From: an uncultured Chryseobacterium sp.
Lineage (GTDB): Bacteria; Bacteroidota; Bacteroidia; Flavobacteriales_D; Sanyastnellaceae
DNA length: 64,000 bases
Reading direction: 5' to 3'
Assembly (NCBI GenBank): GCA_964420985.1
Contig: CAYQUT010000002.1
Coordinates: 47,546 to 111,545 of the forward strand
The translations under genes and the position numbers were made by a program. Below the pieces are notes generated by a model. The model was not told the DNA's origin, searched no databases, and saw only the letters and a program-made list of their open reading frames with translations. Positions 3,538 to 18,706 of this stretch are shown here, one piece after another (the first letter of the stretch is position 1; the number at the start of each line of letters is the position of its first letter).

Positions 3538-5417
3538 TGATGAAACTTTCTGTTGTTGTTGTTAATTACAACGTTCAATATTTTTTAGAGCAATGTTTGC
3601 ACAGTGTGCAACAGGCCCTCAAAGGTATTGATGCAGAAGTTTTTGTGGTTGACAATGTTTCGAAAGACGATTCTGTAGCCATGGTGCAGCAGAAGTTTCC
3701 TTGGGTAAAATTAATCGTGAATACAGAAAATGTTGGTTTTTCTAGGGCCAACAACCAAGCCATGCGTGTGGCAAAAGGTGAGTACGTTTTGCTCCTGAAT
3801 CCTGATACTTTGGTGGAAGAGGATACTTTTAAAAAGTGCATTCAATTCATGGATGAAAGACCTGACGCGGGTGCATTGGGAGTAAAGATGGTGGATGGGA
3901 AAGGGCAGTTTTTAGAGGAGTCAAAAAGGGGAATTCCTTTTCCTTCAACTTCCTTTTTTAAAATATCAGGCATTTATAGATTGTTTCCCCGATCCGCTTT
4001 TTTCAATCATTATTACTTGGGTCATCTTTCAAAAGAAGACAATCAAGAAATTGAAATTTTATCCGGCGCATTCATGTTTATGCGAAAATCTGCATTGGAT
4101 AAAGTGGGTTTGTTGGACGAGGAATTTTTCATGTACGGGGAAGATATTGATTTGAGTTGGCGAATTCTGCAAGGAGGATTTAAAAATCACTACCTAGCTG
4201 ATACGCGCATCATTCATTACAAGGGAGAAAGCACCAAGAAGGGAAGTTTGAATTATGTCTACGTCTTTTATCAAGCGATGGAAATATTTGCCAATAAACA
4301 CTTCGGAGGTTCTTATGCCAAGTGGTTTCATTGGATGATAAAAGTAGCCATTTGGATGAGGGCCGGCATTAGCTTTGGTAAGCGGATTGTCCAAAAAAGC
4401 TTCCTTCCCATTATGGACATTGGGGTTACTTTATCCGTTTGGTGGTTATTGAAGTCATTGTATTCAGATGTTACAGGAATTGTTATAAGAGACAATATTG
4501 CCATTCCTGCTTTTTGTATTGCAGGCTTGTTTTGGCTCATCCAGGGATGGATTCAAGGATTGTACGACACACCATTTAAGACACAGGGCGTGGTAAAAGC
4601 TTTGGGACGTGCTGGATTTTTTCTGCTTGTGCTGTATAGTTTACTTCCCGAGACTTGGCGCTTTAGCAGGTTGTTAATCATTGTGGGATCTCTATTGGCC
4701 ATGGTCGTTTTTTGGACCTTGCGCAGGCTGCTTCAGAAATGGCAATCCCGTGGATTAGCCGAGGTAAAAAAAGTTTTGATTATCGGTGAAACAACGGAGT
4801 CATCTCGGGTGAAATCACTCCTTTCACATTATGCTGAAAACACCGTTGATTTGTCTCCTTTGAATTTTAGAGAACTGCTGAGTGGTCATGCATTGTCTTC
4901 AAAAATTCGAATTGAAGAGTGGAATACCGTTGTGTTTTGTGCCAAAGATTTGACCAGTGAGGAAATCATTTCAGCGATGAGTCAATTGTCCTCATTGCAA
5001 ATTGAGATGAAAATTGCACCTCCTGAAACGTATTTTCTTATCGGAAGTCAAACCATTGATGGAGTGTACCATACGCCTATTGTGGAGTTGAATAGCATTG
5101 CGAGCAAAGAGAATCAGCGGAAGAAGCGATTATTGGATGTTTTGGTCTCTTTGTTTTTAATGACAACGGGTTGGATTTGGATGAAGAAATTTGGATTTAA
5201 GTTGGGACATTGGTCCATCCAGGTACTGTTTAGACAAAAATCATGGGTGAGCTATTCTAACCATGTGCCCTCATTACCCTCATTACCCATTGGTTTTTTT
5301 AATCCCTCTGCGGCTTCAGAGCCTAATCAAGATAGTGAAAAGGCAGACATGTTGTACGCCAAAGACTACCATTGGTCTAAGGACTTAAGATTGATTTGGG
5401 AATGTCTTTCTCGTTGA
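3537..5417 (+). CDS. family 2 glycosyltransferase with a long C-terminal membrane domain
   Basis: N-terminal GT-A signature (LSVVVVNYNVQYFLEQCL, VDNVSKDDS, LLLNPDT, FMYGEDIDLSWR) followed by about 330 aa with several hydrophobic helices. ATGA overlap with the recR stop. Confidence 0.8.
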   Translation: MMKLSVVVVNYNVQYFLEQCLHSVQQALKGIDAEVFVVDNVSKDDSVAMVQQKFPWVKLIVNTENVGFSRANNQAMRVAKGEYVLLLNPDTLVEEDTFKKCIQFMDERPDAGALGVKMVDGKGQFLEESKRGIPFPSTSFFKISGIYRLFPRSAFFNHYYLGHLSKEDNQEIEILSGAFMFMRKSALDKVGLLDEEFFMYGEDIDLSWRILQGGFKNHYLADTRIIHYKGESTKKGSLNYVYVFYQAMEIFANKHFGGSYAKWFHWMIKVAIWMRAGISFGKRIVQKSFLPIMDIGVTLSVWWLLKSLYSDVTGIVIRDNIAIPAFCIAGLFWLIQGWIQGLYDTPFKTQGVVKALGRAGFFLLVLYSLLPETWRFSRLLIIVGSLLAMVVFWTLRRLLQKWQSRGLAEVKKVLIIGETTESSRVKSLLSHYAENTVDLSPLNFRELLSGHALSSKIRIEEWNTVVFCAKDLTSEEIISAMSQLSSLQIEMKIAPPETYFLIGSQTIDGVYHTPIVELNSIASKENQRKKRLLDVLVSLFLMTTGWIWMKKFGFKLGHWSIQVLFRQKSWVSYSNHVPSLPSLPIGFFNPSAASEPNQDSEKADMLYAKDYHWSKDLRLIWECLSR

Positions 5418-5418
5418 T

Positions 5419-5868
5419 TTATTTGACAAACTTACTTTCGTAGAGCGAAATCCAATCTTTGGGGGTCATCTTTTTCATCAACTCACCAATAAGATTGTAT
5501 GGAATTTCTTCGACTTTCTTAAAACGAATACAACTTTTTCCCATGTCCAATTTGCTTTTAACGTGCTTGGGATATTCGTCTTGAAACCATTGAAGCAATT
5601 GGGGTTCTGCATAGATACCCATGTGATAGAGGGCAATGAAATTCTTTTGCGAGGCAACGGAAACAAAGGGAAGCGGAATTTTAGGATCACAATGATATCC
5701 TTTGGGGTATAAATCATGAGGCACGCAAAATCCAATCATCCCGTAACTGAAATCCATCGAAAATCCTTTGGGAAGATTTTTTTTCATGATGGCAATGATT
5801 TTTTCTATCACCACTTTGCGTTCCTCGGGGAGTGCAGCCAAATACGCCTCAATTTTTTCGTTGGACAT
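5419..5868 (-). CDS. DUF1801 (YdhG-like) domain protein
   Basis: 149-aa ORF with overall resemblance to the small YdhG/DUF1801 proteins. No catalytic motif recognised. Convergent with the GT2 gene with no spacer. Confidence 0.55.
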   Translation of the reverse strand: MSNEKIEAYLAALPEERKVVIEKIIAIMKKNLPKGFSMDFSYGMIGFCVPHDLYPKGYHCDPKIPLPFVSVASQKNFIALYHMGIYAEPQLLQWFQDEYPKHVKSKLDMGKSCIRFKKVEEIPYNLIGELMKKMTPKDWISLYESKFVK

Positions 5869-7499
5869 TACGACTTTTTATTGGATTTACTTTTCTTGTA
5901 TTGCAATGCAGCCTTTATAAAAGAAACAAATAATGGATGTGGATTCATCACAGTGCTCTTGTACTCTGGATGGTATTGTGCAGCCACAAAATAAGGGTGT
6001 GATGGAATCTCAATCACCTCCACCAATCCGGTGTCGGGATTCATTCCGGTGCAGCGCAATCCCGCTTTTTCAAAATCCGCTTTGTAGGCATTGTTGAACT
6101 CATAGCGATGGCGGTGCCGCTCTTCAATGATCTCCTGGCCATAAGCTTTATAGGCTTTGGACTTTTTATCCAATTGACAAGTGTATGAGCCAAGACGCAT
6201 GGTTCCTCCTTTGTTGACGACGGTTTTTTGCTCATCCATCAAGGCAATAACAGGATGTTTGGTGTATTCCTTCATCTCTGTGCTATGGGCATCTTTCCAT
6301 CCCAGCACGTTTCTTGCAAATTCTATGGTAGCCATTTGCATACCCAAGCAAATTCCAAAAAATGGAATATTGTTTTCTCGGACAAATTTGATGGCCTCAA
6401 TTTTTCCGTCAATCCCTCTTGAACCAAAACCGGGAGCTACCAATACTCCATCCAAATTTTTGATGGTATTGGAAACGTTTTTAGAGAACAAATTTTCTGA
6501 GTGAATCCAATGAACGTTCACTTTGGTTTCATTGGCGGACCCGCTATGATTAAAGGCTTCCGCAATGGATTTGTAGGCGTCCTTCAACTCAACATATTTA
6601 CCAATCAATCCAATGTTCACCTCATGTTTTGGTTCCTTATAGCGCTTTAAAAATTTATTCCACTGCGTCAAATTGGGTTTTTGTGTGGATTTTACTTTTA
6701 ACTTTTTCAGTACCACCTCATCCAACTTTTCCTTTTGCATCAACAATGGAACATCGTAAATGGTGGGAGCATCAATGCTTTCAATCACCGCGTCAGTTGT
6801 GACGTTGCAAAACTTAGCAATCTTAGATCGAATGGAAGGATGTATGGGGTGCTCGGTGCGACAAACCAAGATATCAGGTTGAACACCATTTTCCAATAGC
6901 ATTTTGACGCTGTGTTGCGTAGGCTTTGTTTTCAACTCGCCCGCAGCAGCGAGGTAAGGAACAAGCGTAAGGTGTATTACAATACAATCTTCTTCTTTTT
7001 CCCACATCAATTGTCTTACCGTTTCGATGTACGGTAAGCTCTCGATATCTCCCACTGTTCCACCAATTTCAGTAATGACAAAATCAAATTGTTTTTTATT
7101 ACCCAATATTTGAATGCATCGTTTGATCTCATCCGTGATGTGAGGGATAATCTGAACGGTTTTGCCCAAATACTCACCTCTACGTTCCTTTTCAATCACG
7201 CTTTGGTAAATTCTTCCGGTAGTGATATTGTTGGCTTGAGAGGTGGCAACGTTTAAAAATCTTTCGTAATGTCCAAGATCCAAATCCGTTTCGGCACCAT
7301 CATCGGTGACATAACATTCGCCGTGTTCATAGGGATTGAGTGTACCTGGATCAATGTTGATATAAGGATCTAATTTTTGAATAGTGACCTTAAAACCTCT
7401 GGCTTGTAATAGTTTAGCCAATGAGGCGGAGATGATTCCTTTGCCCAAAGATGAAGTTACCCCACCGGTGACAAAGATGTATTTAGTGTTATTGGACAT
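5868..7499 (-). CDS. pyrG: CTP synthase
   Basis: N-terminus KYIFVTGGVTSSLGKGI, glutamine amidotransferase Cys in FFGICLGMQ, and HRHRYEFN near the C-terminus. 543 aa. Confidence 0.97.
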   Translation of the reverse strand: MSNNTKYIFVTGGVTSSLGKGIISASLAKLLQARGFKVTIQKLDPYINIDPGTLNPYEHGECYVTDDGAETDLDLGHYERFLNVATSQANNITTGRIYQSVIEKERRGEYLGKTVQIIPHITDEIKRCIQILGNKKQFDFVITEIGGTVGDIESLPYIETVRQLMWEKEEDCIVIHLTLVPYLAAAGELKTKPTQHSVKMLLENGVQPDILVCRTEHPIHPSIRSKIAKFCNVTTDAVIESIDAPTIYDVPLLMQKEKLDEVVLKKLKVKSTQKPNLTQWNKFLKRYKEPKHEVNIGLIGKYVELKDAYKSIAEAFNHSGSANETKVNVHWIHSENLFSKNVSNTIKNLDGVLVAPGFGSRGIDGKIEAIKFVRENNIPFFGICLGMQMATIEFARNVLGWKDAHSTEMKEYTKHPVIALMDEQKTVVNKGGTMRLGSYTCQLDKKSKAYKAYGQEIIEERHRHRYEFNNAYKADFEKAGLRCTGMNPDTGLVEVIEIPSHPYFVAAQYHPEYKSTVMNPHPLFVSFIKAALQYKKSKSNKKS

Positions 7500-7569
7500 T
7501 CCCGTAAAAAGAAAATAGTGTTACGGGATTCAAAGATACTGCAGTATGACCCTGTGATTCAATTTAATT

Positions 7570-8649
7570 TTACATGTTCTTGGTCAGATTCTTTACCCAC
7601 TTGAATTCTATCAGCCATTCTCGAGCTGCAATTCTTAAGATGGTGTAAACAGGCAGAGCAACCGCCATCGCTGGAATACCGCCTACAGTTGCTGCTGCCA
7701 TTAACACAATAAATAGCTCCAATGGATGCACGCGAATACTGCCTCCCAAGATCAAAGGTTGAATGATGAAGGCATCCAGCGTCTGGGCAATCGAGTAGAC
7801 GATGATGATGCCCCAAAACAAATCGGATAGTTGGCCTCCCATGGTCAGTCCAGTAGACATGCCAATGACCATCGCAAATCCAAATGAAATCAATGGCCCT
7901 AAATAAGGGATAACATTGAATACTCCGGAGAATAGCGCTATCAACCATGCATTGGACACTCCCGCGATGCTCAGTCCAATACCAACCATCACAATCATCA
8001 ACAATATTTGAATGATCAAACCTCCGAAATAACGGGACAGCGTTTTTTTGGTATGAACAACAATGTTTTTCATTTTGTCTACATGCTCATCAGGAGTAAT
8101 AGAGAGCAGAATTTTGTAAAACAATTCCTCATCCTTCAAAAAGAAAAAGGACATGAATACCACAGAAATAAATCCGCCGATAATGCTGAACAACCATCCC
8201 AAAAGATTTTCAAAGTATTGCGCATAGTAGTTAAAACTCAATTTCGCTTGCACTTCTCTGAGGAGTTCAGCAAAAGCATCATGCCCATATCCCATTTGCT
8301 CCAACCAATTCATTTGCGCTGGAAACTGTTCAGTTAAGTTTTTTTCAATAATAAAAGGATCCAAGGATAAGATCATATCAATTTCAGAACGTACCAATGG
8401 CATAAACAGCAATACAATTCCGGTCAATGCCGCAATCATCATGACCAGGGTAATAAGCGCACCAACCCATCTGGGACATCTGAATTTTCCCCATTTTAAC
8501 TTCTCCCATTGGTCAACGATGGGGTCACCGATGAACCCAACAACAGCAGCCAAAACAACAAACAACAGAATTTTTCTAAACAAATAAATCAAGCCCAATG
8601 AGGCAACAATCAGTATGATCCAGAGCCAAAAATTGCGTTCTTTATTCAT
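7570..8649 (-). CDS. AI-2E family (PerM/UPF0118) transporter
   Basis: 359-aa polytopic membrane protein with about 8 hydrophobic helices. Layout and C-terminal half (VFNVIPYLGPLIS...) are typical of the AI-2E/PerM family. Confidence 0.8.
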   Translation of the reverse strand: MNKERNFWLWIILIVASLGLIYLFRKILLFVVLAAVVGFIGDPIVDQWEKLKWGKFRCPRWVGALITLVMMIAALTGIVLLFMPLVRSEIDMILSLDPFIIEKNLTEQFPAQMNWLEQMGYGHDAFAELLREVQAKLSFNYYAQYFENLLGWLFSIIGGFISVVFMSFFFLKDEELFYKILLSITPDEHVDKMKNIVVHTKKTLSRYFGGLIIQILLMIVMVGIGLSIAGVSNAWLIALFSGVFNVIPYLGPLISFGFAMVIGMSTGLTMGGQLSDLFWGIIIVYSIAQTLDAFIIQPLILGGSIRVHPLELFIVLMAAATVGGIPAMAVALPVYTILRIAAREWLIEFKWVKNLTKNM

Positions 8650-9112
8650 TGTTTCCGGGAATTTTATAGGCCAAGATAGTGGCTTTTCCTTTGACGATTA
8701 ATTCAGTATCCGTTTCCCTTTGCAAAAGAGCTACTGTACAGGGTTCAAAAGCGGTCCACAGCCCAGTGAGATATTGGTACAATTCACTAATGCCTGGGTT
8801 GTGCGCTATAACAACCAAGTGATTTTCATCCGCATGCTCCTCTATGCAATTCAGGAGCGTTTCCAGATCGGCGTTGTACAAATCAGAAACGATTTTTTGG
8901 CGCAGATTAGGTTGTTTCTTAAGCCAATACGATGCAGTCTCAAGTGTTCTTTCTGAGGGACTGATGAAAAGCACGGCATCGTCAGGCAGTGTCATCTTTT
9001 CACTTTGCCTTTTTGCCTCTTCCTTTCCTCTTGCAGATAACTGACGATGCAAATCAATTTTATTTATTCCTGCTTCTGCGTGAGCGTGTCGGATCAGTGT
9101 AATGGTTTTCAT
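8642..9112 (-). CDS. histidine phosphatase family protein (SixA-like)
   Basis: N-terminal catalytic motif TLIRHAHAE (RHG-type) and AHNPG. 156 aa. Overlaps the downstream gene by 8 nt. Confidence 0.7.
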   Translation of the reverse strand: MKTITLIRHAHAEAGINKIDLHRQLSARGKEEAKRQSEKMTLPDDAVLFISPSERTLETASYWLKKQPNLRQKIVSDLYNADLETLLNCIEEHADENHLVVIAHNPGISELYQYLTGLWTAFEPCTVALLQRETDTELIVKGKATILAYKIPGNNE

Positions 9113-9555
9113 GATGCGATTAATTTGTCAATCAATGCCTGCATGCGTTTGAGCTTTGTTTCTTCCCTTTTGGCTTCTTCAATGAATCTGATATTTTCTT
9201 TTTGTTGGGTGTAGCTCCATTTTTTAAAAGTTGCTTCTGTTCCAGAATGCTGAACAAAAACGGACTTTAACCACATGGGTATTTCTATTTTTCGTTCTTG
9301 GGTATCCAGGACAACTTGCACCCATACACTGTCTCCAAATTCCTTTCCCAATTGAATTCTGATGTCTTTTAATATCGGAATCATGGGGCCTTTCCCCATA
9401 TTGGCTATTCGGCCACGGTATTCTATCTTATTGTCATAAGTGACAACAACAGGAATGAGATTCTTTTTACCAAACAATGCCATTGTATCAAATGGAAAAA
9501 GAATGAAGGCTCCCCCTCCGCCTGCATTTTCAATGATTCCGTTATACGCTACCAT
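9109..9555 (-). CDS. DUF1905 / YdeI-like domain protein
   Basis: 148 aa. The N-terminal beta-rich part (FILFPFDTMALFGKKNLIPVVVTYDN..YRGRI) resembles DUF1905. The C-terminal helical YdeI/OmdA-like tail is recognised by family resemblance only. Confidence 0.55.
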   Translation of the reverse strand: MVAYNGIIENAGGGGAFILFPFDTMALFGKKNLIPVVVTYDNKIEYRGRIANMGKGPMIPILKDIRIQLGKEFGDSVWVQVVLDTQERKIEIPMWLKSVFVQHSGTEATFKKWSYTQQKENIRFIEEAKREETKLKRMQALIDKLIAS

Positions 9556-9563
9556 AATGGATC

Positions 9564-10388
9564 TTATGCACCCAGTCCTACATCCAGCATCATCATCACT
9601 AGAAATCCTGCAATGAATCCAAGGGTGGCAATGTCTGTGTATTTGTCTTGTTGGGTTTCAGGAATAACTTCCTCTACCACAACATAAATCATGGCCCCCG
9701 CGGCAAAGGCCAAGGCATAGGGAAGAATGGGCAACATTTGCATCACGGCCAAGGCGCCAATCACACCCGCAATGGGTTCAACAATGGCAGAAAGTTGTCC
9801 ATAGAAAAAACTTTTTTTGCGGGATAAACCTAGCCGACGCAAGGGGAAAGAAACAGCAATACCTTCAGGGAAATTTTGAAGACCAATACCCACTGCCAGT
9901 GCTACTGCACCTCCGATGGTGGCCTCTGGAACACCAGCTGCAGCACCTCCGAATAAAACCCCTACCGCTAAGCCTTCTGGAATATTGTGCAAGGTGATGG
10001 CCAGCACCAAAAGGATGGTTCCTTGCAAGTTGGTTTTGACACCCTCTTTTTTCTCCTCTGGAAAATTCAAATGCAAATGGGGAAGCCATTTGTCCAATGA
10101 GAAGAGAAACAGCGCACCTGCAGCAAAACCAACAGCTGCTGGAATGGCTTTGACAAAACCTTCACCCGGGCTCATTTCTATGGCAGGATTTAATAACGAC
10201 CAAAAACTAGCCGCAATCATTACTCCCCCCGTAAATCCTAACATGCCATCAAGCCATCTGCGGTGCAGCGTTTTAAAAAGAAAAACAAGCGCGGCCCCCG
10301 CGGCAGTCACCAACCATGTAAAGCATGTTGCATAAAATGCCGCCCATACAGGATCAATAGAACTCAGATAATCGACAACCATTTTCAT
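9564..10388 (-). CDS. ZIP family divalent metal transporter (ZupT-like)
   Basis: 274-aa polytopic protein with paired ZIP motifs HNIPEGLAVG and QNFPEGIAVS. Confidence 0.85.
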   Translation of the reverse strand: MKMVVDYLSSIDPVWAAFYATCFTWLVTAAGAALVFLFKTLHRRWLDGMLGFTGGVMIAASFWSLLNPAIEMSPGEGFVKAIPAAVGFAAGALFLFSLDKWLPHLHLNFPEEKKEGVKTNLQGTILLVLAITLHNIPEGLAVGVLFGGAAAGVPEATIGGAVALAVGIGLQNFPEGIAVSFPLRRLGLSRKKSFFYGQLSAIVEPIAGVIGALAVMQMLPILPYALAFAAGAMIYVVVEEVIPETQQDKYTDIATLGFIAGFLVMMMLDVGLGA

Positions 10389-10392
10389 ATCT

Positions 10393-10400
10393 CAAAGTTA
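10393..10400 (-). promoter_or_regulatory. candidate -7 promoter box (TAACTTTG on the - strand) for the ZIP transporter gene
   Basis: The reverse complement of caaagtta is TAACTTTG (TAnnTTTG). Only 4 nt separate it from the ATG at 10388, implying a leaderless or near-leaderless mRNA. Confidence 0.35.
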
Positions 10401-10502
10401 ATCTTTATTGGATTGGTTGGAGATATTTATGTGATAGTGTGCGTTGAGAAAGATTAATTACGAACTCCAAATCATTGCAAATTTCCTACAAAAGTGAAAT
10501 GG

Positions 10503-10678
10503 TTCATCGGTAAATCAGTAAATCAGTAAATCGGTAGATCAGTGAATCGGTGGATTGGAAAATCAGTAGATCAGTAGATTAGTAGATCGGTAGATCGGTA
10601 GATCGGTAGATCGGTAGATTAGTGAATCGGTAAATTAGAGAATAAGTAGATCGGTGAATCAGTATATGGGTGGAATTG
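10503..10678 (+). repeat. tandem array of 22 units of an 8-bp repeat (consensus GTRRATCR / TRRATCRG)
   Basis: Parsed by hand: ttcatcgg taaatcag taaatcag taaatcgg tagatcag tgaatcgg tggattgg aaaatcag tagatcag tagattag tagatcgg x4 tagattag tgaatcgg taaattag agaataag tagatcgg tgaatcag tatatggg tggaattg. One unbroken 8-nt register. The array ends 10 nt before the stop codon of the four-helix-bundle ORF. Confidence 0.95.
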
Positions 10679-10688
10679 AATGGGGTAT

Positions 10689-11042
10689 TTAGTTTACAAC
10701 TTGACGAAATGCTGAAATTCTTCTGGATAAAATACCTGTTTCCTCTATGAGCTTGTCGATATCAAATGCTTGATCATTGAGTTCTTGGATGATTCTGAGT
10801 GTGGCTCTGGTTTCCATGCATGAGGCAAATGCAATGGTCAAAAAATGTTCTTTTTCTTTTTTGGTTTTTCTGGACATTCCCTCGGCTATATTCAGGGTAA
10901 CAGAAGTAATGGATCTTCTTATTTGCTGTATCAATGATGCGTCAGTCCACCTGCTCTTGCGAATATTTTTATAGATGAAAATACTAAGTCTCAAAGACTC
11001 TTTCCAAATTTCCAATTTTTCGTAACTTATGTTCTCTGTCAT
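10689..11042 (-). CDS. four-helix-bundle protein, 23S rRNA-intervening-sequence protein family (PF05635 / TIGR02436; Avd-related)
   Basis: MTENISYEKLEIWKESLRLSIFIYK...IQQIRRSITSVTLNIAEGMSRKTKKEKEHFLTIAFASCMETRATLRII matches the family hallmarks (E.W..s..l...iy; QlrRs..Si..NIAEG..r.s.ke...fl.iA.gS..E). I prefer the ATG at 11042 over the track's TTG at 11060. Confidence 0.85.
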   Translation of the reverse strand: MTENISYEKLEIWKESLRLSIFIYKNIRKSRWTDASLIQQIRRSITSVTLNIAEGMSRKTKKEKEHFLTIAFASCMETRATLRIIQELNDQAFDIDKLIEETGILSRRISAFRQVVN

Positions 11043-11110
11043 ATTGCAAAACACAAGCAAAAAGAGGAATATCGAAATAAATTAAAAATAGGAATATCAT
11101 ATAAGTTATG

Positions 11111-11438
11111 CCATACACCCATCCACCGATATGCTGATCTACTGATTAACCGATTTACTGATTCACTGATTTACCAATTCACCGATTCACTGATCTACTG
11201 ATTAACCGATTCACTGATCTACTGATTCACTGATTTACCAATCCACCGATATACTGATCTACTGATTAACCGATTCACTGATTTACCATTCCACTGATCC
11301 ACCGATATACCGATCCACCGATATACCGATCTACTGATTAACCGATTCACTGATTTACTGATCCACCGATCCACCGATATACCGATCTACTGATTAACCG
11401 ATTCACTGATTTACCAATCCACCGATATACTCATCCAC
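11111..11438 (-). repeat. tandem array of 41 units of the same 8-bp repeat, inverted relative to the 10503-10678 array
   Basis: On the + strand the units read YGATNNAC (ccatacac ccatccac cgatatgc tgatctac tgattaac cgatttac ... caatccac cgatatac tcatccac). The reverse complement is GTNNATCR, the same unit vocabulary as the left array. There are no indels over 328 bp, and a block of about 48 bp recurs. Confidence 0.95.
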
Positions 11439-11445
11439 CTTTCCT

Positions 11446-11453
11446 TATCTTTG
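11446..11453 (+). promoter_or_regulatory. candidate -7 promoter box (TATCTTTG) for aspS
   Basis: Exact TAnnTTTG match, 19 nt upstream of the aspS ATG and 7 nt after the last repeat unit. The -33 region lies inside the array (only TTTC is seen there). Confidence 0.4.
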
Positions 11454-11472
11454 TCCTTCAAATTTTTTCACC

Positions 11473-13221
11473 ATGCATCGTACACATACCTGCGGAGAGC
11501 TCCGCGCTGAACATATTGGTCAAACCGTCACCCTGAGCGGTTGGGTGCAACGCAGCCGCGACCTGGGTGGTATGACCTTCGTCGATCTTCGTGATCGTTA
11601 TGGCATAACTCAACTGGCTTTCAACATGGAAACCCATGAAGCACTCTGTTTAGAAGCCAGAAAATGGGGCCGCGAATTTGTCATAAAAGCCACCGGTATA
11701 GTCATCGAAAGACATTCGAAAAATGCGCAAATGCCTACGGGAGATATCGAAATTCAAGTCACTGATTTTACATTGCTCAATACCTCTAAAACCCCACCAT
11801 TTACAATAGAAGATGAAAGCGATGGCGGGGATGATTTGCGCATGCAATGGCGTTTCTTGGACTTACGCAGAAATCCTTTGAAAAACAACCTTATGCTCCG
11901 TCACCGCATGGGAATTGTAGCCAGAAACTTTTTGGATCAACAGGGATTCTTGGAAATTGAAACACCTTATTTGATCAAGTCTACCCCAGAAGGAGCGCGT
12001 GACTTCGTTGTTCCCAGCCGAATGAATCCTGGGCAATTTTATGCTCTTCCCCAATCTCCTCAAACGTTTAAACAGCTCTTGATGGTAAGCGGTTATGATC
12101 GCTATTATCAAATTGTGCGCTGCTTCCGTGATGAGGATTTGCGCGCTGATCGTCAACCGGAGTTTACCCAAATTGACTGTGAGATGGCTTTTGTTGAGCA
12201 ACAGGACATCCTCAATATGTTTGAAGACTTGGTCAAAACTTTGTTCCGTGATGTAAAAGGAATAGAATTGGAAAATGTTCCGCACATGACCTACGCCGAT
12301 GCCATGCAGTACTACGGTTCTGATAAGCCAGATGTGCGTTTTGATATGAAGTTCAACGACCTCTCTGCGCTGATGCAAAACAAAGGTTTCCAAGTTTTTG
12401 ATGCGGCACAATGCGTTTTGGGAATTGTAGCCAAAGGTGCAGGGAATTACACCCGCAAACAATTGGATGAATTGACTGAGTGGGTCAAGCGACCACAAAT
12501 TGGAGCAAAAGGTTTGGTTTATTGCTTGTGCCAACCAGAGGGTGCTTTTAAATCTTCCGTGGACAAATTTTACAACCAAGAGCAATGGAAAGAAATTGCT
12601 GCGCAAATGGGCGCTGTAGAAGGTGATTTGATTTTAATACTATCTGGCGATCTGCACGCCACCCGCAAGCAATTGGGTGAGCTGCGCTTGCACATGGGCA
12701 ATTTATTGGGGTTGAGAAATCCAAACGTATTTAAGCCTCTGTGGGTGGTGGACTTCCCATTGGTGGAATGGAATGAAGAAGCACAACGTTGGTTTGCCAT
12801 GCACCATCCGTTTACTTCACCTAAGCCAGAGCACATTGACTTATTGGACAACAATCCTGGATCTGTAAATGCCAACGCATATGATTTTGTCATCAACGGC
12901 GTCGAAGTAGGCGGTGGATCCATTCGTATCCACGATAGAAATGTTCAGGCCAGAATGTTTGATCTTTTGGGATTCACCCCAGAGGAGGCACAAGCTCAGT
13001 TTGGATTCTTGTTGAACGCCTTTGAATACGGAGCGCCGCCACACGGTGGAATCGCTTTCGGTTTTGACCGCTTGTGTTCATTGTTTGGTGGTTCCGACAG
13101 TATCCGTGATTTCATTGCCTTCCCTAAAAACAACAGCGGAAGAGATGTGATGATTGATGCTCCATCGGTCATCGATCAAAAACAATTGGATGAGCTTTCC
13201 ATTGATGTAAAGGCACAATGA
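11473..13221 (+). CDS. aspS: aspartate--tRNA ligase
   Basis: 582 aa. N-terminal OB-fold ([10 protein letters not shown]...VTLSGWV), class II motif 2 [26 protein letters not shown], and motif 3 GIAFGFDRL. Confidence 0.97.
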
Positions 13222-13958
13222 AAACCCTGTTGGGACCAGTTTACTTTGTCTACAAACTCTGGATAGGGGCTGTATTTTGGGCGACATTACTGTTGCTTTT
13301 CCCTTTTTTCTGGTTGTTGTTGCAAAGTAAAAAGACATATTCTTTAGCGTTTTTATTGAAGCGATTTTGGTCTTGGTTGATTAGAACATTGATTTTTTGC
13401 CCTGTTGTAATAAAGAACAAATCATTTATTCCCAAAACAGCCTTTATAGCCACTAGCAATCACATCAGTTATCTCGATACGGTTTTTATGTACGCGGTAC
13501 TGGATCGGTACTTTTTATTTATCGGAAAAGCAGAGTTGCTGAAATGGCCCTTGTTCTCGTTGTTCTTCAGAAAGCAAGATATTCCAGTGCACAGAGGCAA
13601 TCCCCGTGAGGCTTATCTGTCATTGCAATTGGCAGGTGAGGCCTTGAACAGGGGAGAGAACATTGCCATTTACCCTGAGGGAACCATTCCCGATGAAGCC
13701 CCCATCATGCGAACTTTTAAAACGGGAGCTTTTAGATTGGCCATTGAAAAGCAAGTCCCCATTGTACCTGTTGTCTGGCACAACAACCACAAGGTAATGT
13801 TAGATCCTAGTAAACTTTTTTCTTTTTCGTTGCCGCAATTGGTGAGGGTTACCGTGTTGAAACCCATTTCAACCCTAGGAATGACAGAGGCAGATGTTGT
13901 AAGTTTGCGCGACAAAGTTTTTAAGAGCATTCAAGATTGTTTGAGAAATGAAAATTGA
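13218..13958 (+). CDS. plsC: 1-acyl-sn-glycerol-3-phosphate acyltransferase
   Basis: HX4D motif NHISYLD and YPEGT motif, with an N-terminal membrane anchor. ATGA overlap with the aspS stop. Confidence 0.82.
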
Positions 13959-14247
13959 CAAAGAAACCGTTGACCGTTTGGCTGAACTGGCCAAATTGGA
14001 ATTTGATGAAACCAGTAAAGAGGCCATGGTCAAGGATTTGACCAACATGTTGGCTTTTGTAGATCAGCTCAATGCCTTGGATGTAGAGGGTGTGGAGCCT
14101 TTGATTTTTGTCAATGAACGCAATAACAATGTTCTGCGTGAAGACAAGATAGAGCATCCCATTACACAGGCAGAAGCACTGAAAAATGCCCCACAAAAGG
14201 ACATGTATTATTTCAGAGTGCCCAAAGTTATTGGGCAAAGTGAGTAA
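13948..14247 (+). CDS. gatC: Asp-tRNA(Asn)/Glu-tRNA(Gln) amidotransferase subunit C
   Basis: 99 aa. [21 protein letters not shown]...MLAFVDQLNALDVEGVEPL is the typical GatC pattern. Overlaps the plsC end by 11 nt. Confidence 0.85.
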   Translation: MKIDKETVDRLAELAKLEFDETSKEAMVKDLTNMLAFVDQLNALDVEGVEPLIFVNERNNNVLREDKIEHPITQAEALKNAPQKDMYYFRVPKVIGQSE

Positions 14248-14308
14248 AGTGACCAAAGTTGCTGTTGTGTAAAGATTAGAATCAGATATTTGTAAAAAAT
14301 AAAGTAAG

Positions 14309-14722
14309 ATGTATCCTCCAGAATTAGTAGCACCGATGCGTGCGGAATTAGATCAATTGGGATTTGAACAAACCATGACTGTTGAAGCTGTCGATGCAGC
14401 TGTCAACTCCACAGGGACAGTATTAATGGTTTTGAATTCAGTGTGTGGTTGTGCAGCAGGAAGCATGCGACCCGGCGTTAGAAAATCATTGGAAGGAACC
14501 GCTAAGGCCCCTTCCAAGATGGTTTCTGCTTTTGCAGGTGTAGACAGAGATGCCGTTGTTAGGGCCAGACAGTATATGCTGCCTTATCCTCCTTCATCTC
14601 CCAGCATCGCCTTGTTCAAAGATGGCAAGTTGATGCACATGGTAGAACGCCACCACATTGAAGGAAGAACGGCCGATATGATTGCGGAACACTTGAAAAT
14701 GGTGTACGAAGAATTTTGTTAA
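14309..14722 (+). CDS. bacilliredoxin, BrxA/BrxB (YphP/YqiW, DUF1094) family
   Basis: 137 aa. The CGC redox motif sits in NSVCGCAAGSMRPG, with family-typical ends (MYPPELV...; ...IEGR.A..I...L). Confidence 0.8.
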   Translation: MYPPELVAPMRAELDQLGFEQTMTVEAVDAAVNSTGTVLMVLNSVCGCAAGSMRPGVRKSLEGTAKAPSKMVSAFAGVDRDAVVRARQYMLPYPPSSPSIALFKDGKLMHMVERHHIEGRTADMIAEHLKMVYEEFC

Positions 14723-14744
14723 AGAATACAACTTGGAAAACATT

Positions 14745-14770
14745 AAAATCGACTTCGGTCGATTTTTTTT
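14745..14770 (+). terminator. rho-independent terminator after the bacilliredoxin gene
   Basis: aaaatcgac-ttcg-gtcgatttt followed by a T-run (ttttttttg). Confidence 0.75.
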
Positions 14771-14801
14771 GTGAATAAACTGTTGATAAGCACTATCTTT
14801 G
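14768..14801 (+). promoter_or_regulatory. candidate -33 TTTG / -7 TATCTTTG promoter for the DEAD-box helicase operon
   Basis: TTTG at 14768-14771 and TATCTTTG at 14794-14801. The 22-nt spacer is slightly long. It would give a 5' UTR of about 100 nt containing a ccgagt...actcgg stem. Confidence 0.35.
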
Positions 14802-14910
14802 CCCCGAAATAATTGTGCGGCTACGATTTCTTTTTTTTGTTTTCCGAGTAAATGTTACGGATAGAATCAGGAAGAAGTTGTTATAACTCGGACAGCAAAA
14901 AAATTTATTA

Positions 14911-16431
14911 ATGAAGTCATTTGAAGAGCTAGGACTAGATACGTCTATCCTAAAGGCATTGAAAGATGCGGGATATGAAAATCCCACCCCAGTACAAGAA
15001 GGAACAATTGAGTGGGCCATTGAGGGCCAGGATGTTTTGGGTTGCGCCCAAACCGGTACTGGAAAAACAGCAGCGTTTACACTACCTGTATTGCATTGCT
15101 TGGCCAATCGCCAAGACAAAGGAATCAAAGCTTTGGTGTTGGCACCAACACGTGAATTGGCCATGCAAATTGGAACATCTTTGCGTGATTACTCCAAGTA
15201 CATGCGCATTCGCCACACTGTCATTTATGGAGGTGTTTCAGCTTATGAGCAAATCAAGAATCTTCGTCGTGGTGTGGATGTTTTAATTGCTACCCCAGGC
15301 CGTTTGTTGGATTTGCACAACCAAGGTCATGTCAATTTGAGTAAGGTTGAGTTTTTGGTTTTAGATGAAGCGGATCGCATGTTGGACATGGGATTTATTC
15401 ATGACATTAAGACCATCGAATCATTGTGCGCTGAGCAAAAGCAAACGTTGTTCTTTAGTGCAACTATGCCGCCAGACGTTCGCAAATTGGCCATGGGAAT
15501 TTTAAATGACCCCAAGCAATTGGATATTGCTCCATCTGAGCAAAGAGTGGACAGCATTGAACAGGAGATGGTGATTTTACGCAGAGACCGTAAGCGTGCA
15601 ATGTTAACCCAATGGTTGGATGACAACGCTGAAGGTCAAGTATTGATTTTCACCAAAACCAAGCGCGGAGCTGATCGTGTTGAGGAAGATTTACAAGAAC
15701 AAGGTTATCGTGCTGTCGCCATTCACGGGGACAAGAGTCAAGGTGCGCGCACAAGAGCTTTGGGTGATTTTAAAAGAAACAAGGCCAGAATTTTGGTAGC
15801 AACAGACGTGGCATCACGCGGAATTGATGTAGATCAACTTCCTTATGTCATCAACTTTGATATGCCAGAAAATGCTGAAACTTATGTTCATAGAATAGGC
15901 CGCACGGGAAGGGCTGGAGCAAAAGGTAAAGCAATTTCTTTTTGTTGTGAGGATGATCGTGATATATTGCACGAAATTGAAAAGCATTTAGATTTAGAAA
16001 TTGTTAAAAATACTGACCATCCTTTCGTACTTTCGGAGAGAGATTTGGCTGACGTGTTGGAAAAACCACAACGTGGTGGAAACAGAAGCGGTGGACCAAG
16101 CAGAGGTTACAAAGGAAAAGGCAGAGGATTTGGCGGTGGAGCAAGACGCAATGATTCAAGAGGTGGTGGAGCAAGACGCAACGATGGCAGAGGAGAAAAT
16201 AGAGGAGAGAGCAGAGGCTTTGGTGGTGGAGAAAATCGTGGTGGAGAAAATCGCGGTGGAGAGCGTAGAAGTGAGCCAAGAGGTGAAGGAAGAACAGAAA
16301 ACAGCGGAAACAGATCAAGCTACGGAAATAGCCATGGCGGCGGTTTTCAAGGTGGAAGATCAGGTTCAGCTGGACCAAATAAAGGCGGCGTAAAAAAGAA
16401 GTTTTTCAGTGGAGCAAAAAGAAGCAACTAG
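14911..16431 (+). CDS. DEAD-box ATP-dependent RNA helicase (RhlE/CsdA-like) with an RG/RGG-rich C-terminal tail
   Basis: Motifs AQTGTGKT, PTRELA, TPGRL, DEAD, SAT and HRIGRTGRAG. The last ~110 aa are low-complexity (GGGARRNDSRGGGARRNDGRGENRGESRGFGGGENRGGENRGGERR). Confidence 0.93.
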   Translation: MKSFEELGLDTSILKALKDAGYENPTPVQEGTIEWAIEGQDVLGCAQTGTGKTAAFTLPVLHCLANRQDKGIKALVLAPTRELAMQIGTSLRDYSKYMRIRHTVIYGGVSAYEQIKNLRRGVDVLIATPGRLLDLHNQGHVNLSKVEFLVLDEADRMLDMGFIHDIKTIESLCAEQKQTLFFSATMPPDVRKLAMGILNDPKQLDIAPSEQRVDSIEQEMVILRRDRKRAMLTQWLDDNAEGQVLIFTKTKRGADRVEEDLQEQGYRAVAIHGDKSQGARTRALGDFKRNKARILVATDVASRGIDVDQLPYVINFDMPENAETYVHRIGRTGRAGAKGKAISFCCEDDRDILHEIEKHLDLEIVKNTDHPFVLSERDLADVLEKPQRGGNRSGGPSRGYKGKGRGFGGGARRNDSRGGGARRNDGRGENRGESRGFGGGENRGGENRGGERRSEPRGEGRTENSGNRSSYGNSHGGGFQGGRSGSAGPNKGGVKKKFFSGAKRSN

Positions 16432-16440
16432 TTTTAACAC

Positions 16441-17505
16441 ATGAGTAAATTCACCTACAACCAAGAAGAGCACCCATTTTTTGATCGTTTGCAGAAAAAG
16501 GTTTATGCTTATTTTGAAGACAACAAAATTGAAATGACCGGAGGCTGGAAATTGTGGTCCAAAGCAATGTTTTATATTGTTGCAGCTGCAGTTAATTATT
16601 GGTTGATGGTGTGGATGGTACCTGCAGGTGTTTGGAGTGTTTTACTTTGTATATCAATGGGTCTACTATTGGCCGGTATAGGTTTTAATGTAATGCACGA
16701 TGGTGCCCACGGTTCTTTTTCAAAATACGCTTGGGTCAATAATGTTATGGGTTTCAGCCTTAACTTTATGGGAGGGGATGTCAATCTTTGGAAAATCAAA
16801 CACAATTTGGTGCACCATAGTTTCACCAACGTTGAAGGATTAGACGATGATATCGATATTGAGCCATTCATAAGAACCAACCCCCACCAAGAAAAAAAGA
16901 AGATGCATCGTTTCCAACACTGGTATGTCTCTTTCTTGTACGCAGTGACTTATTTGAATTGGATTTGGTGGGCGGACTTTGAAAAATATTTTAGTCAAAA
17001 AGTAGGGGGTGTAAAGTTCAGAAAATTGGATTTCAAATCGCATCTGACTTTTTGGATTGGTAAAGTAGGGTTCTTGGTTCTTGCATTGGTTATTCCCATT
17101 ATTGTTGTGGGTTGGGCAAAAGCCCTGGTGGGCTTTGCAATAGTCGCAGCAACAACGGGCATTCTAATCGCTTTGGTATTTCAAGTTGCGCACGTCGTAG
17201 AGTATACATCATTTATGAATGCTGAAGACAAGGCAACCAAGGATGAATGGGCCATAACGCAGTTAAAGGGTACTGCGAATTTTGCGACCAGCAATAGAGT
17301 TGTACTCTTCTTTACTGGCGGATTGAATCATCAAATAGAGCATCATTTGTTCCCGCGCATTTCTCATGTTCACTATCCTAAAATCAGTGCCATCGTGAAG
17401 GACACCTGCAAGGAATTTGGTATTCAGTATTATGAGTATAAAACATTCATCGGCGCTGTTGCTTCACACTATGCTCACTTGAGAAACATGGGAGTGGCAG
17501 CTTGA
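16441..17505 (+). CDS. membrane fatty-acid desaturase (three His-box, front-end-like third box)
   Basis: His boxes HDGAHG, HNLVHH and QIEHH (NHQIEHHLFP), with about 4 TM helices. Starts 9 nt after the helicase stop. Confidence 0.85.
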   Translation: MSKFTYNQEEHPFFDRLQKKVYAYFEDNKIEMTGGWKLWSKAMFYIVAAAVNYWLMVWMVPAGVWSVLLCISMGLLLAGIGFNVMHDGAHGSFSKYAWVNNVMGFSLNFMGGDVNLWKIKHNLVHHSFTNVEGLDDDIDIEPFIRTNPHQEKKKMHRFQHWYVSFLYAVTYLNWIWWADFEKYFSQKVGGVKFRKLDFKSHLTFWIGKVGFLVLALVIPIIVVGWAKALVGFAIVAATTGILIALVFQVAHVVEYTSFMNAEDKATKDEWAITQLKGTANFATSNRVVLFFTGGLNHQIEHHLFPRISHVHYPKISAIVKDTCKEFGIQYYEYKTFIGAVASHYAHLRNMGVAA

Positions 17506-17517
17506 GAATAAATCATT

Positions 17518-17548
17518 AAAAAAAAAACCCGCAACTGCGGGTTTTTTT
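17518..17548. terminator. bidirectional rho-independent terminator between convergent genes
   Basis: aaaaaaa-cccgc-aact-gcggg-ttttttt. The A-run and T-run flanks allow function on both strands. Confidence 0.8.
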
Positions 17549-17566
17549 GTTCTATTACAGATGGAT

Positions 17567-18706
17567 TTACAACGTCCCTCTTCTTTCCTGCTCACGTTCT
17601 ATGGATTCAAACAAAGCTTTGAAATTTCCTTTTCCAAAACTTTTGGCTCCTTTTCTTTGAATGATCTCAAAGAACATGGTTGGACGGTCCAAAACAGGTT
17701 TGGTGAATAGTTGAAGCAAATATCCTTCATCATCACGATCAATCAAGATACCCAATTCTTTCAACGGAGCAAGGTCTTCGTCGATTTGACCAACGCGATC
17801 CAAAACGTCATCATAATAGGATGGAGGAACGTATAAAAATTCAACACCTCCAGCCTTCAGACGCTTGACTGTCTCAATAATGTTCTCAGTTGCTACTGCA
17901 ATATGTTGCACGCCTGCGCCATTGTAAAAGTCAATGTATTCTTCGATTTGACTTTTTTTACGTCCTTCAGCAGGCTCATTGATTGGAAATTTAATTCGAC
18001 CATTTCCATTGGCCATAACCTTACTCATAAGTGCAGTGTACTCTGTACTAATGTCTTTATCATCAAAACTGACCAACTGGGTGAATCCCATTACTTTGGC
18101 ATAAAAGTCAACCCAAGTATTCATTTCATTCCAACCAACATTGCCCACCATATGGTCTATGTAAAGCAGTCCTGCATCAGTGGCTTTAAAATCTGGATTC
18201 CATGCTTGGTAACCAGGAAGGAAAATACCATTGTAGTTTTTTCTTTCAATAAAGTAATGCAAGGTCTCACCATAGGTGTGAATGGCTGAAACTACTACTT
18301 CTCCTTCATTGTCTTTCATTACAACTGGCTCCATGTTGCTCTTGGCGCCGCGTTGAGTAGTTTGTTCCCAGCTATATTTGGCGTCATCAACCCAAAGGGC
18401 AACAACTTTAACACCATCTCCGTGTGCGTTGATGTGTGCGTTGATGGGTCCATCTTGTTGCAAAGGAGAGGTCAATACCAAACGGATTTTATCTTGCTCC
18501 AGCACGTAGGAAACCCTGTCCTTAAGTCCAGTTTCCAATCCAGCATAAGCAACAGGTTGGAATCCCCAGGCACTCATGTAATAATGAGCTGCTTGCTTGG
18601 CATTGCCCACGTACAATTCAACATAGTCTGTACCTAAAATGGGCAAAAAGTCTTGCGCTTCAGCAAAGACCTTTTCTAGTTTTAATGAGGTAGTATCTGT
18701 TATCAT
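17567..18706 (-). CDS. hppD: 4-hydroxyphenylpyruvate dioxygenase
   Basis: 379 aa. Two VOC-fold halves and the conserved C-terminus FFEIIQRKGAKSFGKGNFKALFESIEREQERRG. Confidence 0.92.
   Translation of the reverse strand: MITDTTSLKLEKVFAEAQDFLPILGTDYVELYVGNAKQAAHYYMSAWGFQPVAYAGLETGLKDRVSYVLEQDKIRLVLTSPLQQDGPINAHINAHGDGVKVVALWVDDAKYSWEQTTQRGAKSNMEPVVMKDNEGEVVVSAIHTYGETLHYFIERKNYNGIFLPGYQAWNPDFKATDAGLLYIDHMVGNVGWNEMNTWVDFYAKVMGFTQLVSFDDKDISTEYTALMSKVMANGNGRIKFPINEPAEGRKKSQIEEYIDFYNGAGVQHIAVATENIIETVKRLKAGGVEFLYVPPSYYDDVLDRVGQIDEDLAPLKELGILIDRDDEGYLLQLFTKPVLDRPTMFFEIIQRKGAKSFGKGNFKALFESIEREQERRGTL

Follow-up and report, generated by a model that had tools for sequence, protein, structure and literature searches.

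To our knowledge, the origin and mobility of the intervening sequences (IVSs) of ribosomal RNA (rRNA) genes, and the role of their conserved open reading frame (ORF), have been unsettled since the early 1990s, and we know of no function for the protein family concerned, PF05635, outside diversity-generating retroelements (DGRs). The present study concerns a gene of this family in a 64,000-nt stretch (the window) of contig CAYQUT010000002.1 from an uncultured Chryseobacterium sp., where it lies between two inverted arrays of an 8-nt repeat; the gene and its arrays are together referred to as the cassette. In Coxiella, RNase III cuts the IVS within its 28-bp terminal stem; on the upstream side of the S23p ORF there are three to four tandem heptamers (GACAGAT), variable in number, the first of which is the site of the 5′ cut (Warrier et al., 2016; PMC4990558). 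PF05635 domains have also been reported in 16S and 23S insertions of Candidate Phyla Radiation (CPR) bacteria (PMC11270868), among CRISPR-linked proteins (PMC10910872) and as a family resembling the DGR protein Avd (PMC10053308), and 18 '23S_rRNA_IVP' genes have been found in cas loci, one of them between cmr3 and cmr2 of Pleurocapsa (Zhang et al., 2014; PMC3936711).

In the window cassette, with its 41 + 22 octamers, we see a well-developed example of an architecture general to the PF05635 branch that was sampled. The gene and its two arrays are inherited, inserted and inverted together as one unit, the arms of which change in length by whole repeats, and this unit lies in sense orientation within host transcription units, rRNA included. 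In our preferred reading, which we consider probable, it is a discrete insertion-type cassette and the free-standing form of the ORF-carrying rRNA IVS, with a stem that would be cut by RNase III and arrays that would recombine at the DNA level. With rRNA IVSs (Leptospira, Coxiella burnetii S23p and the Azospirillum plasmid AZO_p2) it shares the protein family encoded in the loop, in sense to host transcription, inverted-repeat termini that form a closing stem, a total size of a few hundred bases and short tandem repeats of variable number beside the ORF (GACAGAT ×3–4 in Coxiella, heptamers in Azospirillum). Unlike them, the window cassette lies outside any rRNA gene: the window contains neither rRNA nor tRNA, no Rfam family reaching its gathering score and the tRNA scan being empty, as an earlier note on this DNA had stated of rRNA. 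Its arms of 176 and 328 nt consist entirely of tandem octamers, compared with 28 bp in Coxiella; it has a conserved leader and possibly its own promoter; and its ORF is under purifying selection, whereas that of Coxiella is decaying.

Paired tandem arrays have been described in other settings. Xanthomonas campestris has 186 GGGAATC arrays, 70 of them convergent pairs, mostly just downstream of a gene; array 15 of the published table overlaps the start of XCC0516, a crystallised PF05635 member, and the family is not mentioned (Rehm et al., 2015; PMC4692102). Paired heptanucleotide arrays of Geobacter metallireducens have been listed as putative regulator sites (PMC2700814). These arrays, like the cyanobacterial short tandemly repeated repetitive (STRR) sequences, resemble those of the window in being intergenic tandem arrays of 7–8 nt, often paired convergently so that on either strand the G-rich part is 5′, in starting near the end of the upstream gene and in varying in copy number. 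The Xanthomonas and Geobacter arrays have, however, been treated as candidates for G-quadruplex formation or regulator binding, unlinked to PF05635, whereas those of the window are the termini of a cassette. In the full-text literature, subscription journals lying outside its coverage, we found no paper linking the PF05635 family to flanking tandem arrays as a rule.

Inverted octamer arrays inherited with the gene

The cassette occupies the divergent spacer that separates the gene of a ZIP transporter (minus strand, start 10388) from aspS (plus strand, start 11473), which encodes AspS. No other non-coding gap of the window is as large as the two that contain the arrays (430 and 300 nt), the remaining divergent spacers measuring 63–215 nt. 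On the gene strand the 5′ array is built of purine-rich GGTRRATC-type units (GATYNACY on the plus strand), with higher-order periods of 56 and 72 nt, and the 3′ array of pyrimidine-rich GATYNACY-type units. Tandem Repeats Finder (TRF) reports a period-8 array at 10506–10664 (19.9 copies) and a second array at 11134–11439, called with periods of 16, 24, 56 and 72. When a unit is counted as in phase if at least four of the five core bases (GAT..AC.) are kept, there are 20 units in 10501–10668 (minus strand) and 40 in 11112–11439 (plus strand). A three-unit pattern (GATYNAYY ×3, at most two mismatches) has 52 matches in the 64 kb, all of them within the two arrays, with 0.05 expected from shuffled sequence. 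A further candidate array at 20845–20884 was rejected as a chance, weak pattern match inside a 479-aa ORF.

The best register of the inverted arms spans 181 nt with 78% complementarity, and because many other registers pair at 70–76% the arms are independent mixtures of one unit family and not mirror copies of each other. In minus-strand RNA (10480–11460) both the minimum-energy and the centroid fold pair the arrays, at −331 kcal/mol compared with −229 ± 7 for shuffles (z = −15). The oversized spacer, the inverted period-8 arrays of 22 and 41 units and the imperfect duplex of ~170 bp into which a transcript might fold them had all been put forward in the earlier note, and each agrees with these values.

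An identical protein is encoded at the aspS/ZIP locus in at least ten metagenome assemblies. Among these, the gap between the gene and aspS measures 358, 390, 414 or 430 nt (32, 36, 38 or 40 units) and that between the gene and ZIP 276 or 300 nt (18 or 20 units). All of the differences in array length are multiples of 8 bp, in keeping with the array slippage proposed earlier; they could represent real strain variation or, in part, assembly collapse.

Copies elsewhere in Bacteroidota retain the same order (array, conserved leader, gene, trailer, inverse array) and the same octamer family and polarity in every context. These contexts are aspS/ZIP (the window, L001–L010 and L018), the interval between an AsmA-family gene and a CarbopepD_reg_2 gene (L011–L014; 5 and 7 units) and that of L016/L017 (18 and 3 units). 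The cassette of a Bacteroidota metagenome-assembled genome (MAG; L236), with 9 and 13 units and a coding sequence 72% identical to that of the window, probably represents a fourth context, its flanks differing on reading from those of L016. The proteins in other contexts are 73–88% identical to the window protein, and comparison of the window with L018, L011 and L016 gives identities of 81–88% in the leader, 72–92% in the coding sequence and 75–83% in the trailer. Leader, gene and trailer are thus conserved, whereas the sequences outside the arrays in the other contexts are unrelated to the flanks in the window; the arrays are therefore the ends of a conserved unit.

The copy in L018, whose protein is 88% identical to that of the window, has the same outer flanks as the window, the ZIP-side flank being identical at 95 of 111 positions to window 10381–10500 on the same strand. 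This flank adjoins the upstream array of the gene in L018 and the downstream array in the window, so that the inner segment has been inverted between the arrays, as the geometry had earlier been said to allow. All ten identical-protein assemblies show one orientation, and the inverted form occurs only in this diverged relative.

The layout in operons and rRNA genes

The wider family was sampled as the best 80 metagenome loci from a scan with the family alignment, which are relatives of 34–50% identity. TRF detected an array upstream of the gene in 52 of 74 loci, one downstream of it in 60 of 76 and both in 38 of 70, and in 32 loci the upstream and downstream units are related as reverse complements (at most two mismatches). 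The period is most often 7 (20 loci), followed by 9 (eight loci) and 8 (four loci), and periods of 6 and 10 also occur. Up to 350 nt from the gene there are 2.84 arrays per kb, compared with 0.42 per kb at distances of more than 600 nt. In a test independent of TRF, in which the upstream flank was locally aligned with the reverse complement of the downstream flank, 52 of the 62 loci with full flanks scored above the 95th percentile of 244 displaced controls; the co-occurrence of PF05635 genes with inverted arrays, which the earlier note had proposed to look for, is strongly positive. Of 34 cases, 29 have an upstream unit that is purine-rich when read on the coding strand.

The repeat unit follows the protein. 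It is shared in eight of eight protein pairs of at least 80% identity, in 44% of those of 65–80%, in 8% of those of 50–65% and in ~0–1% of those below 50%, and clades retain their unit across flanking host G+C contents of 0.28–0.64. Since the unit tracks the protein tree across host G+C, the arrays are a property of the element rather than of the genome that hosts it. The possibility that the octamer is special to the window protein was rejected: relatives use many units of 6–10 nt, and complete octamer cassettes of Planctomycetota (L190) and Nitrospirota (L247) flank proteins only 26–28% identical to that of the window. Neighbouring genes are co-directional with the PF05635 gene upstream in 55 of 60 and downstream in 57 of 66 cases, a median of 80 nt separates it from the gene upstream, and in several copies the array starts at or within the stop codon of the upstream gene. 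With so little room upstream, most copies would therefore have no promoter of their own and be transcribed with host genes. Judged from the sequences, the relatives that were sampled usually have the array–gene–array layout, from ordinary operons to rRNA IVSs.

Searching a plasmid collection with tblastn recovered family members from Nostoc, Calothrix, Stanieria, Riemerella, Azospirillum and others, annotated, where an annotation is given, as 'four helix bundle protein' or 'S23 ribosomal protein'. On Azospirillum lipoferum 4B plasmid AZO_p2 (L356; NC_016586.1, 13601–15536) a 23S rRNA gene (Rfam LSU_rRNA_bacteria, 1366 bits) contains a PF05635 ORF for which the record has no annotation, the insertion being apparently at helix 45, to judge from the flanking sequence. 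Inverted heptamer arrays bracket the ORF and form the terminal stem of the fold (z = −10). This element is an rRNA IVS with the same layout as the window cassette, and the resemblance to IVS topology that had been suspected for the window now has a counterpart in an actual 23S rRNA gene.

A further copy is that of Picosynechococcus PCC 7003 (L357; plasmid NZ_CP016476.1, 125749–127690), in which a type III-B operon has an array–ORF–array block of ~440 bp separating cas10/cmr2 from cmr3. In its sister strain, PCC 7002 (pAQ6; L359), cas10 and cmr3 are 12 nt apart, with flanks ~90% identical and neither ORF nor arrays. Because cas10 and cmr3 are adjacent in other cyanobacteria too, the block is an insertion, and the comparison of filled and empty sites shows that the arrays arrive with the gene. 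The stop codon of cas10 is re-created within the first array unit in PCC 7003. Closing of the structure by the arrays is common to the folds of the window, the cas cassette and the AZO_p2 IVS.

As a separate observation on plasmid-borne copies, Nostoc PCC 7120 plasmids alpha and gamma (L353 and L354) carry identical four-helix-bundle genes (WP_010994075.1), each with (TCTGCCC)n downstream; each has a transposase gene on its upstream side (ISL3 family by annotation in gamma), as though the 5′ array had given way to an inserted insertion sequence (IS).

The protein and the sequences around it

The 117-aa ORF matches PF05635 (E = 6.2e-22, 78.3 bits; cut-off 33.8) and TIGR02436 (E = 3.7e-23, 81.8 bits; cut-off 24), and the earlier assignment to this family is secure. 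An AlphaFold model (14 sequences, monomer) has a predicted local distance difference test score of 90.2 and four helices (residues 11–29, 35–57, 61–87 and 95–116). Foldseek gives template-modelling (TM) scores of 0.87 to 2gsc (XCC0516 of X. campestris), 0.77–0.83 to 2rld (BT_0352) and ~0.75 to the DGR protein Avd (4dwl, 8ub7), sequence identity to Avd being ~11–13%; phmmer matches 2gsc_A at 2.9e-7. The 2gsc, 2rld and Avd entries comprise five chains each in the fold search, and XCC0516 has been described as a homopentameric toroid (PMC4990558). The motif RxxxSxxxNxxE is present (R43, S47, N51, E54), the leading G of the published GxxRxxxSxxxNxxE (PMC3936711) being Q40 in the window protein, and S47, N51, I52, A53, E54, G55 and R58 are invariant in two family alignments.

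Every relative at another locus is an intact protein of 117 aa, and the ratio of nonsynonymous to synonymous substitution rates (dN/dS) relative to L011 is 0.14; for these reasons the window gene appears to be intact and under purifying selection and its product to be functional. The defence and phage libraries PADLOC and PHROGs contain no match to the window protein. The family itself is very large, with profile matches at E ≤ 0.001 in 37,916 clusters (50% identity). Many of its members (P0163, P0200, P0207, P0212, P0240, P0263) are called at 130–200 aa with the domain starting from about residue 38 or later; gene callers may extend the ORF through the upstream array and so inflate protein lengths in databases.

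No reverse transcriptase is found among the genes called within 3 kb on either side, where the only domains are GatC, Acyltransferase, tRNA-synt_2, Zip, DUF1905/OmdA, His_Phos_1 and AI-2E_transport. As for a template/variable repeat (TR/VR) pair, window 4000–18000 (within 7 kb of the gene) contains no direct repeat of 40 nt or more except the two arrays. The locus is accordingly not a DGR within these distances, as had been concluded before.

Within the leader the motif GATATTCCT occurs twice, at 11065–11073 and 11090–11098; it is the 9-bp direct repeat AGGAATATC of the plus strand, and direct reading reproduces both earlier coordinates. A relaxed Bacteroidetes −7-like box, TCTTTTTG, is also present (11065–11058). 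The leaders of all Bacteroidota copies (window 11043–11110; L011 2792–2868; L016 572–644; L018 2035–2115) have a conserved motif, TATAGGNTATTCCTATATTTTATG, with a small dyad (AGGA-TAT-TCCT), the core of which, GATATTCCT, is the sequence duplicated in the window; by its sequence this motif could be an operator or part of a promoter. At the other end, the conserved trailer sequence runs on into the degenerate units of the 3′ array.

Perfect Bacteroidetes-type −7 boxes (TAnnTTTG) number only two in the spacer. One (11446–11453, plus strand) lies 19 nt 5′ of the aspS ATG and 7 nt from the end of the 5′ array, and the other (10400–10393, minus strand) lies 4 nt 5′ of the ZIP ATG and ~100 nt from the array end. 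Both boxes are just outside the arrays, and the cassette therefore fits exactly between the putative promoters of the divergent host genes. A scan for sigma-70 promoters and terminators was discarded, since its hits did not rise above chance and the promoter type is wrong for Bacteroidota. The features of the cassette and the repeat units of three named carriers are collected in Table 1.

Table 1. Parts of the window cassette, and array units flanking PF05635 genes in named carriers.
Feature	Position	Strand	Description
Gene-upstream (5′) terminal array	11111..11438	(−)	~41 octamer units
Leader between 5′ array and ATG	11043..11110	(−)	68 nt; 81–88% identical among cassette copies elsewhere
Four-helix-bundle protein gene	10689..11042	(−)	117 aa; PF05635 / TIGR02436; relative of XCC0516, BT_0352 and DGR Avd
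Trailer between stop codon and first degenerate units of 3′ array	10679..10688	(−)	short
Gene-downstream (3′) terminal array	10503..10678	(−)	~22 octamer units; inverted partner of 5′ array
Riemerella			upstream GGTTTAA, downstream TAAACCT; inverted arrays flank gene
Stanieria			upstream AAGGCAG, downstream CCTTCTG; inverted arrays flank gene
Picosynechococcus PCC 7003			upstream AGGAGATA, downstream ATCTCCTA; inverted arrays flank gene

Weighing the readings of the cassette

If the cassette is the free-standing form of an ORF-carrying IVS, it would usually be promoter-less and would ride in sense on host transcripts. Whatever the register, the purine-rich 5′ array would pair with the pyrimidine-rich 3′ array, forming a long, imperfect duplex whose loop contains the ORF, and RNase III would cut this stem, by analogy with the proven rRNA IVSs of Coxiella and other species (PMC4990558), freeing an ORF-bearing RNA and leaving the host RNAs usable. 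A selfish cassette lacking a promoter could in this way exploit host transcription while the host RNA stays unblocked. The insertion would be tolerated in operons and rRNA because the host RNA stays usable after the cut, and tandem repeats would be favoured because pairing survives slippage. In DNA the inverted arrays would recombine, giving inversion (as in L018) and concerted evolution of the two arms, and recombination between arrays would probably also delete the gene and leave array hairpins behind.

Several observations weigh against this account. A promoter may lie in the conserved 68-nt leader of the Flavobacteriales clade, on the gene side of the 5′ array, and with the divergent aspS upstream the main mRNA may start downstream of that array and never form the long stem. 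The stability of the arm duplex favours the sense strand at 20 loci and the antisense strand at 26 (p = 0.33), and without a sense-strand advantage there is no signature of selection at the RNA level as opposed to a plain DNA inverted repeat. The fold of the whole cas-operon cassette is no better than that of shuffles (z = −0.7). The fixed polarity, with the purine-rich array 5′ and the pyrimidine-rich array 3′ (29 of 34 cassettes, and 14 to 0 in the gene-less pairs described below), is not explained by a stem. The family sample, being made up of the 80 best matches, covers one PF05635 branch and probably not the DGR-linked Avd proteins. Neither a target-site duplication, at the window ends or at the PCC 7003/PCC 7002 junctions, nor a transposase, recombinase or reverse transcriptase within 3 kb of the gene was seen; in this respect, and in having tandem arrays of variable length as termini, the cassette differs from MITEs (miniature transposable elements bounded by inverted repeats) and small insertion sequences, which it resembles as a discrete block with inverted termini, presence/absence polymorphism between strains and multiple loci. 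Finally, no empty site for the window locus was found by way of the ZIP orthologues, because their synteny is broken at the cassette.

With regard to this synteny, ZIP orthologues 85–97% identical (L339–L352, compared with window 9109–10388) have other upstream neighbours, either a 355-aa protein or His_Phos_1, and in the closest set, at 97% identity, the DUF1905/OmdA gene found after ZIP in the window is missing as well. The window cassette is thus located at a synteny breakpoint.

Arrays also occur without the gene. A genome scan with GATYNACY ×4 returned at least 120 loci in many phyla, and of the 120 octamer loci listed 117 have no PF05635 gene in the 8-kb block, as searched with a profile from 76 family members; the other three are complete cassettes (L190, L247 and the Bacteroidota L236). 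The earlier note had held that arrays independent of PF05635 genes would refute the association. The gene almost always has arrays, and that part of the claim stands; the arrays are often without the gene (117/120), and the association is therefore one-way, altered but not removed. Many of the gene-less loci are single arrays, and 14 are close inverted pairs with 0–85 nt between the arms. In all 14 the purine-rich arm (GGTGAATC type) is 5′ and the pyrimidine-rich arm 3′, with none of opposite polarity, which is the polarity of the cassettes. The loops of such pairs differ among copies in one genome, and on this ground we rejected a single MITE-like master element as their source. Some genomes have arrays on the flanks of ordinary genes, in either orientation. 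The gene-less arrays in the genomes of L247 and L236 share the unit of the cassette there, and none is present in the 64-kb window. A looser search of viral contigs (GATYNAYY ×4) was discarded: nearly all of its hits were (GATT)n and (GATTTATT)n microsatellites, and no PF05635 gene was close to them.

Two further observations were made at such loci. In L247 (Nitrospirota MAG JACPZO010000097.1, ~4700–5850) the gene between a gene-less hairpin and the cassette resembles tsaD, by its translation only, and has GC-rich palindromic units (GGGGAGAGGG / CCCTCTCCCC) inside its reading frame. In L199, L222 and L256 (Planctomycetales MAG CSMAG_3057) the octamer arrays adjoin a second class of tandem repeat (GGGACTAG / CCAGGGAC types), and several array families may co-exist in this genome.

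The main rival to the IVS-like reading would explain why gene-less arrays are so many. It takes the arrays to be putative binding sites, in DNA or RNA, of a pentameric PF05635 toroid, serving either autoregulation or a spread of arrays in trans resembling that of repetitive extragenic palindrome (REP) doublets forming hairpins (REPINs) by REP-associated tyrosine transposases (RAYTs). We consider it unlikely, although it has the most to commend it among the alternatives. The repeat unit co-varies with the protein phylogeny, but common descent of gene and arrays predicts this equally well. The invariant polar motif (R..S..N..E, NIAEG) resembles a ligand or nucleic-acid site (PMC3936711), the solved relatives have five chains, with XCC0516 a homopentameric toroid, and Avd is found within an RNA–protein complex with reverse transcriptase (8ub7); the window protein nevertheless has no known catalytic fold and no match in the defence or phage libraries. 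Gene-less arrays carry the unit of the cassette in the same genomes (L247, L236), X. campestris has its 186 GGGAATC arrays with one overlapping the XCC0516 start (PMC4692102), and the polarity that all pairs share would fit a process with a direction. Against this rival, the GGTGAATC-type octamer flanks proteins as distant as 26–28% identity, and the differing loops of gene-less hairpins within one genome are unlike transposed master copies. REPIN–RAYT systems are similar in having a single small gene between inverted repeat copies and, as far as the genomes of the L247 and L236 cassettes are concerned, in that the repeat also occurs in the same genome without the gene; their repeats form hairpin-forming intergenic doublets of fixed polarity, as do the 14 gene-less close pairs. 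They differ in that the gene flanked in the window encodes only a PF05635 four-helix bundle and no Y1 (IS200/IS605-like) transposase, in that the cassette repeats are tandem units of 6–10 nt and not a unique palindrome of 20–35 nt, and in that the PF05635 gene is often multi-copy, any action in trans being putative. A broader speculation, to which we likewise attach a rather low probability, is that PF05635 cassettes are widespread, unrecognised mobile elements, whose Avd-like ring would recognise the termini, recruit a host polymerase, reverse transcriptase or recombinase, and seed or maintain the gene-less hairpins in the manner of REPINs and RAYTs. Were this so, the fixed purine-5′ polarity would be the footprint of the directional process.

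A local phase-variation switch, in which slippage or inversion would alter expression of aspS and/or the ZIP operon with the small gene incidental, is considerably less probable. Inversion between relatives, the variation of unit number among samples and the closeness of the arrays to the −7 boxes (7 nt for aspS, ~100 nt for ZIP) would all suit such a switch. However, because these host boxes lie outside the arrays, slippage leaves the spacing between box and gene unchanged; the layout is also found inside operons and rRNA genes, where a switch would be senseless; and, unlike a site-specific invertible element, the locus has no recombinase or invertase gene within 3 kb and a single orientation in ten assemblies, the inverted form belonging to a relative diverged to 88% protein identity.

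That the arrays are generic intergenic simple-sequence repeats of the cyanobacterial STRR or Xanthomonas GGGAATC type, and chance neighbours of the gene, is very improbable and already largely refuted. The 117 of 120 listed octamer loci without a PF05635 gene in the 8-kb block and the arrays flanking ordinary genes in some genomes would fit it; yet arrays are enriched sevenfold beside PF05635 genes, flanking inverted repeats are found in 84% of loci compared with 5% of controls by construction, the unit keeps to the protein tree although the hosts differ greatly in G+C, the filled/empty comparison has arrays and gene arriving together, and the window has no other such array in its 64 kb. Scarcely credible is a DGR remnant that kept the Avd gene alone, for although the fold resembles Avd (TM ~0.75, the solved entries having five chains each, in line with the pentamers of the literature) and no Pfam family is commoner near DGRs than PF05635 (PMC10053308), the structures most like the model are those of XCC0516 and BT_0352, which are not DGR proteins, DGRs do not have the array layout, no reverse transcriptase lies within 3 kb and no template/variable repeat pair within 7 kb of the gene, and no reverse transcriptase pseudogene or TR/VR remnant was seen in L001–L018.

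The reading of the cassette as a free-standing, IVS-like insertion can be pursued on tractable material, namely the natural filled/empty pair PCC 7003/PCC 7002 and the crystallised XCC0516 with an array at its start. Our comparison suggests that the published CRISPR-associated 23S_rRNA_IVP genes (PMC3936711, PMC10910872) are cassette insertions and not cas partners; more generally, a PF05635 gene within a cas or other operon may have come there by insertion and not be a functional partner. If the stereotyped cassette holds, ORF-bearing IVSs, the heptamer and octamer arrays of Xanthomonas, Geobacter and others and the CRISPR-associated '23S_rRNA_IVP' genes would all describe one element.

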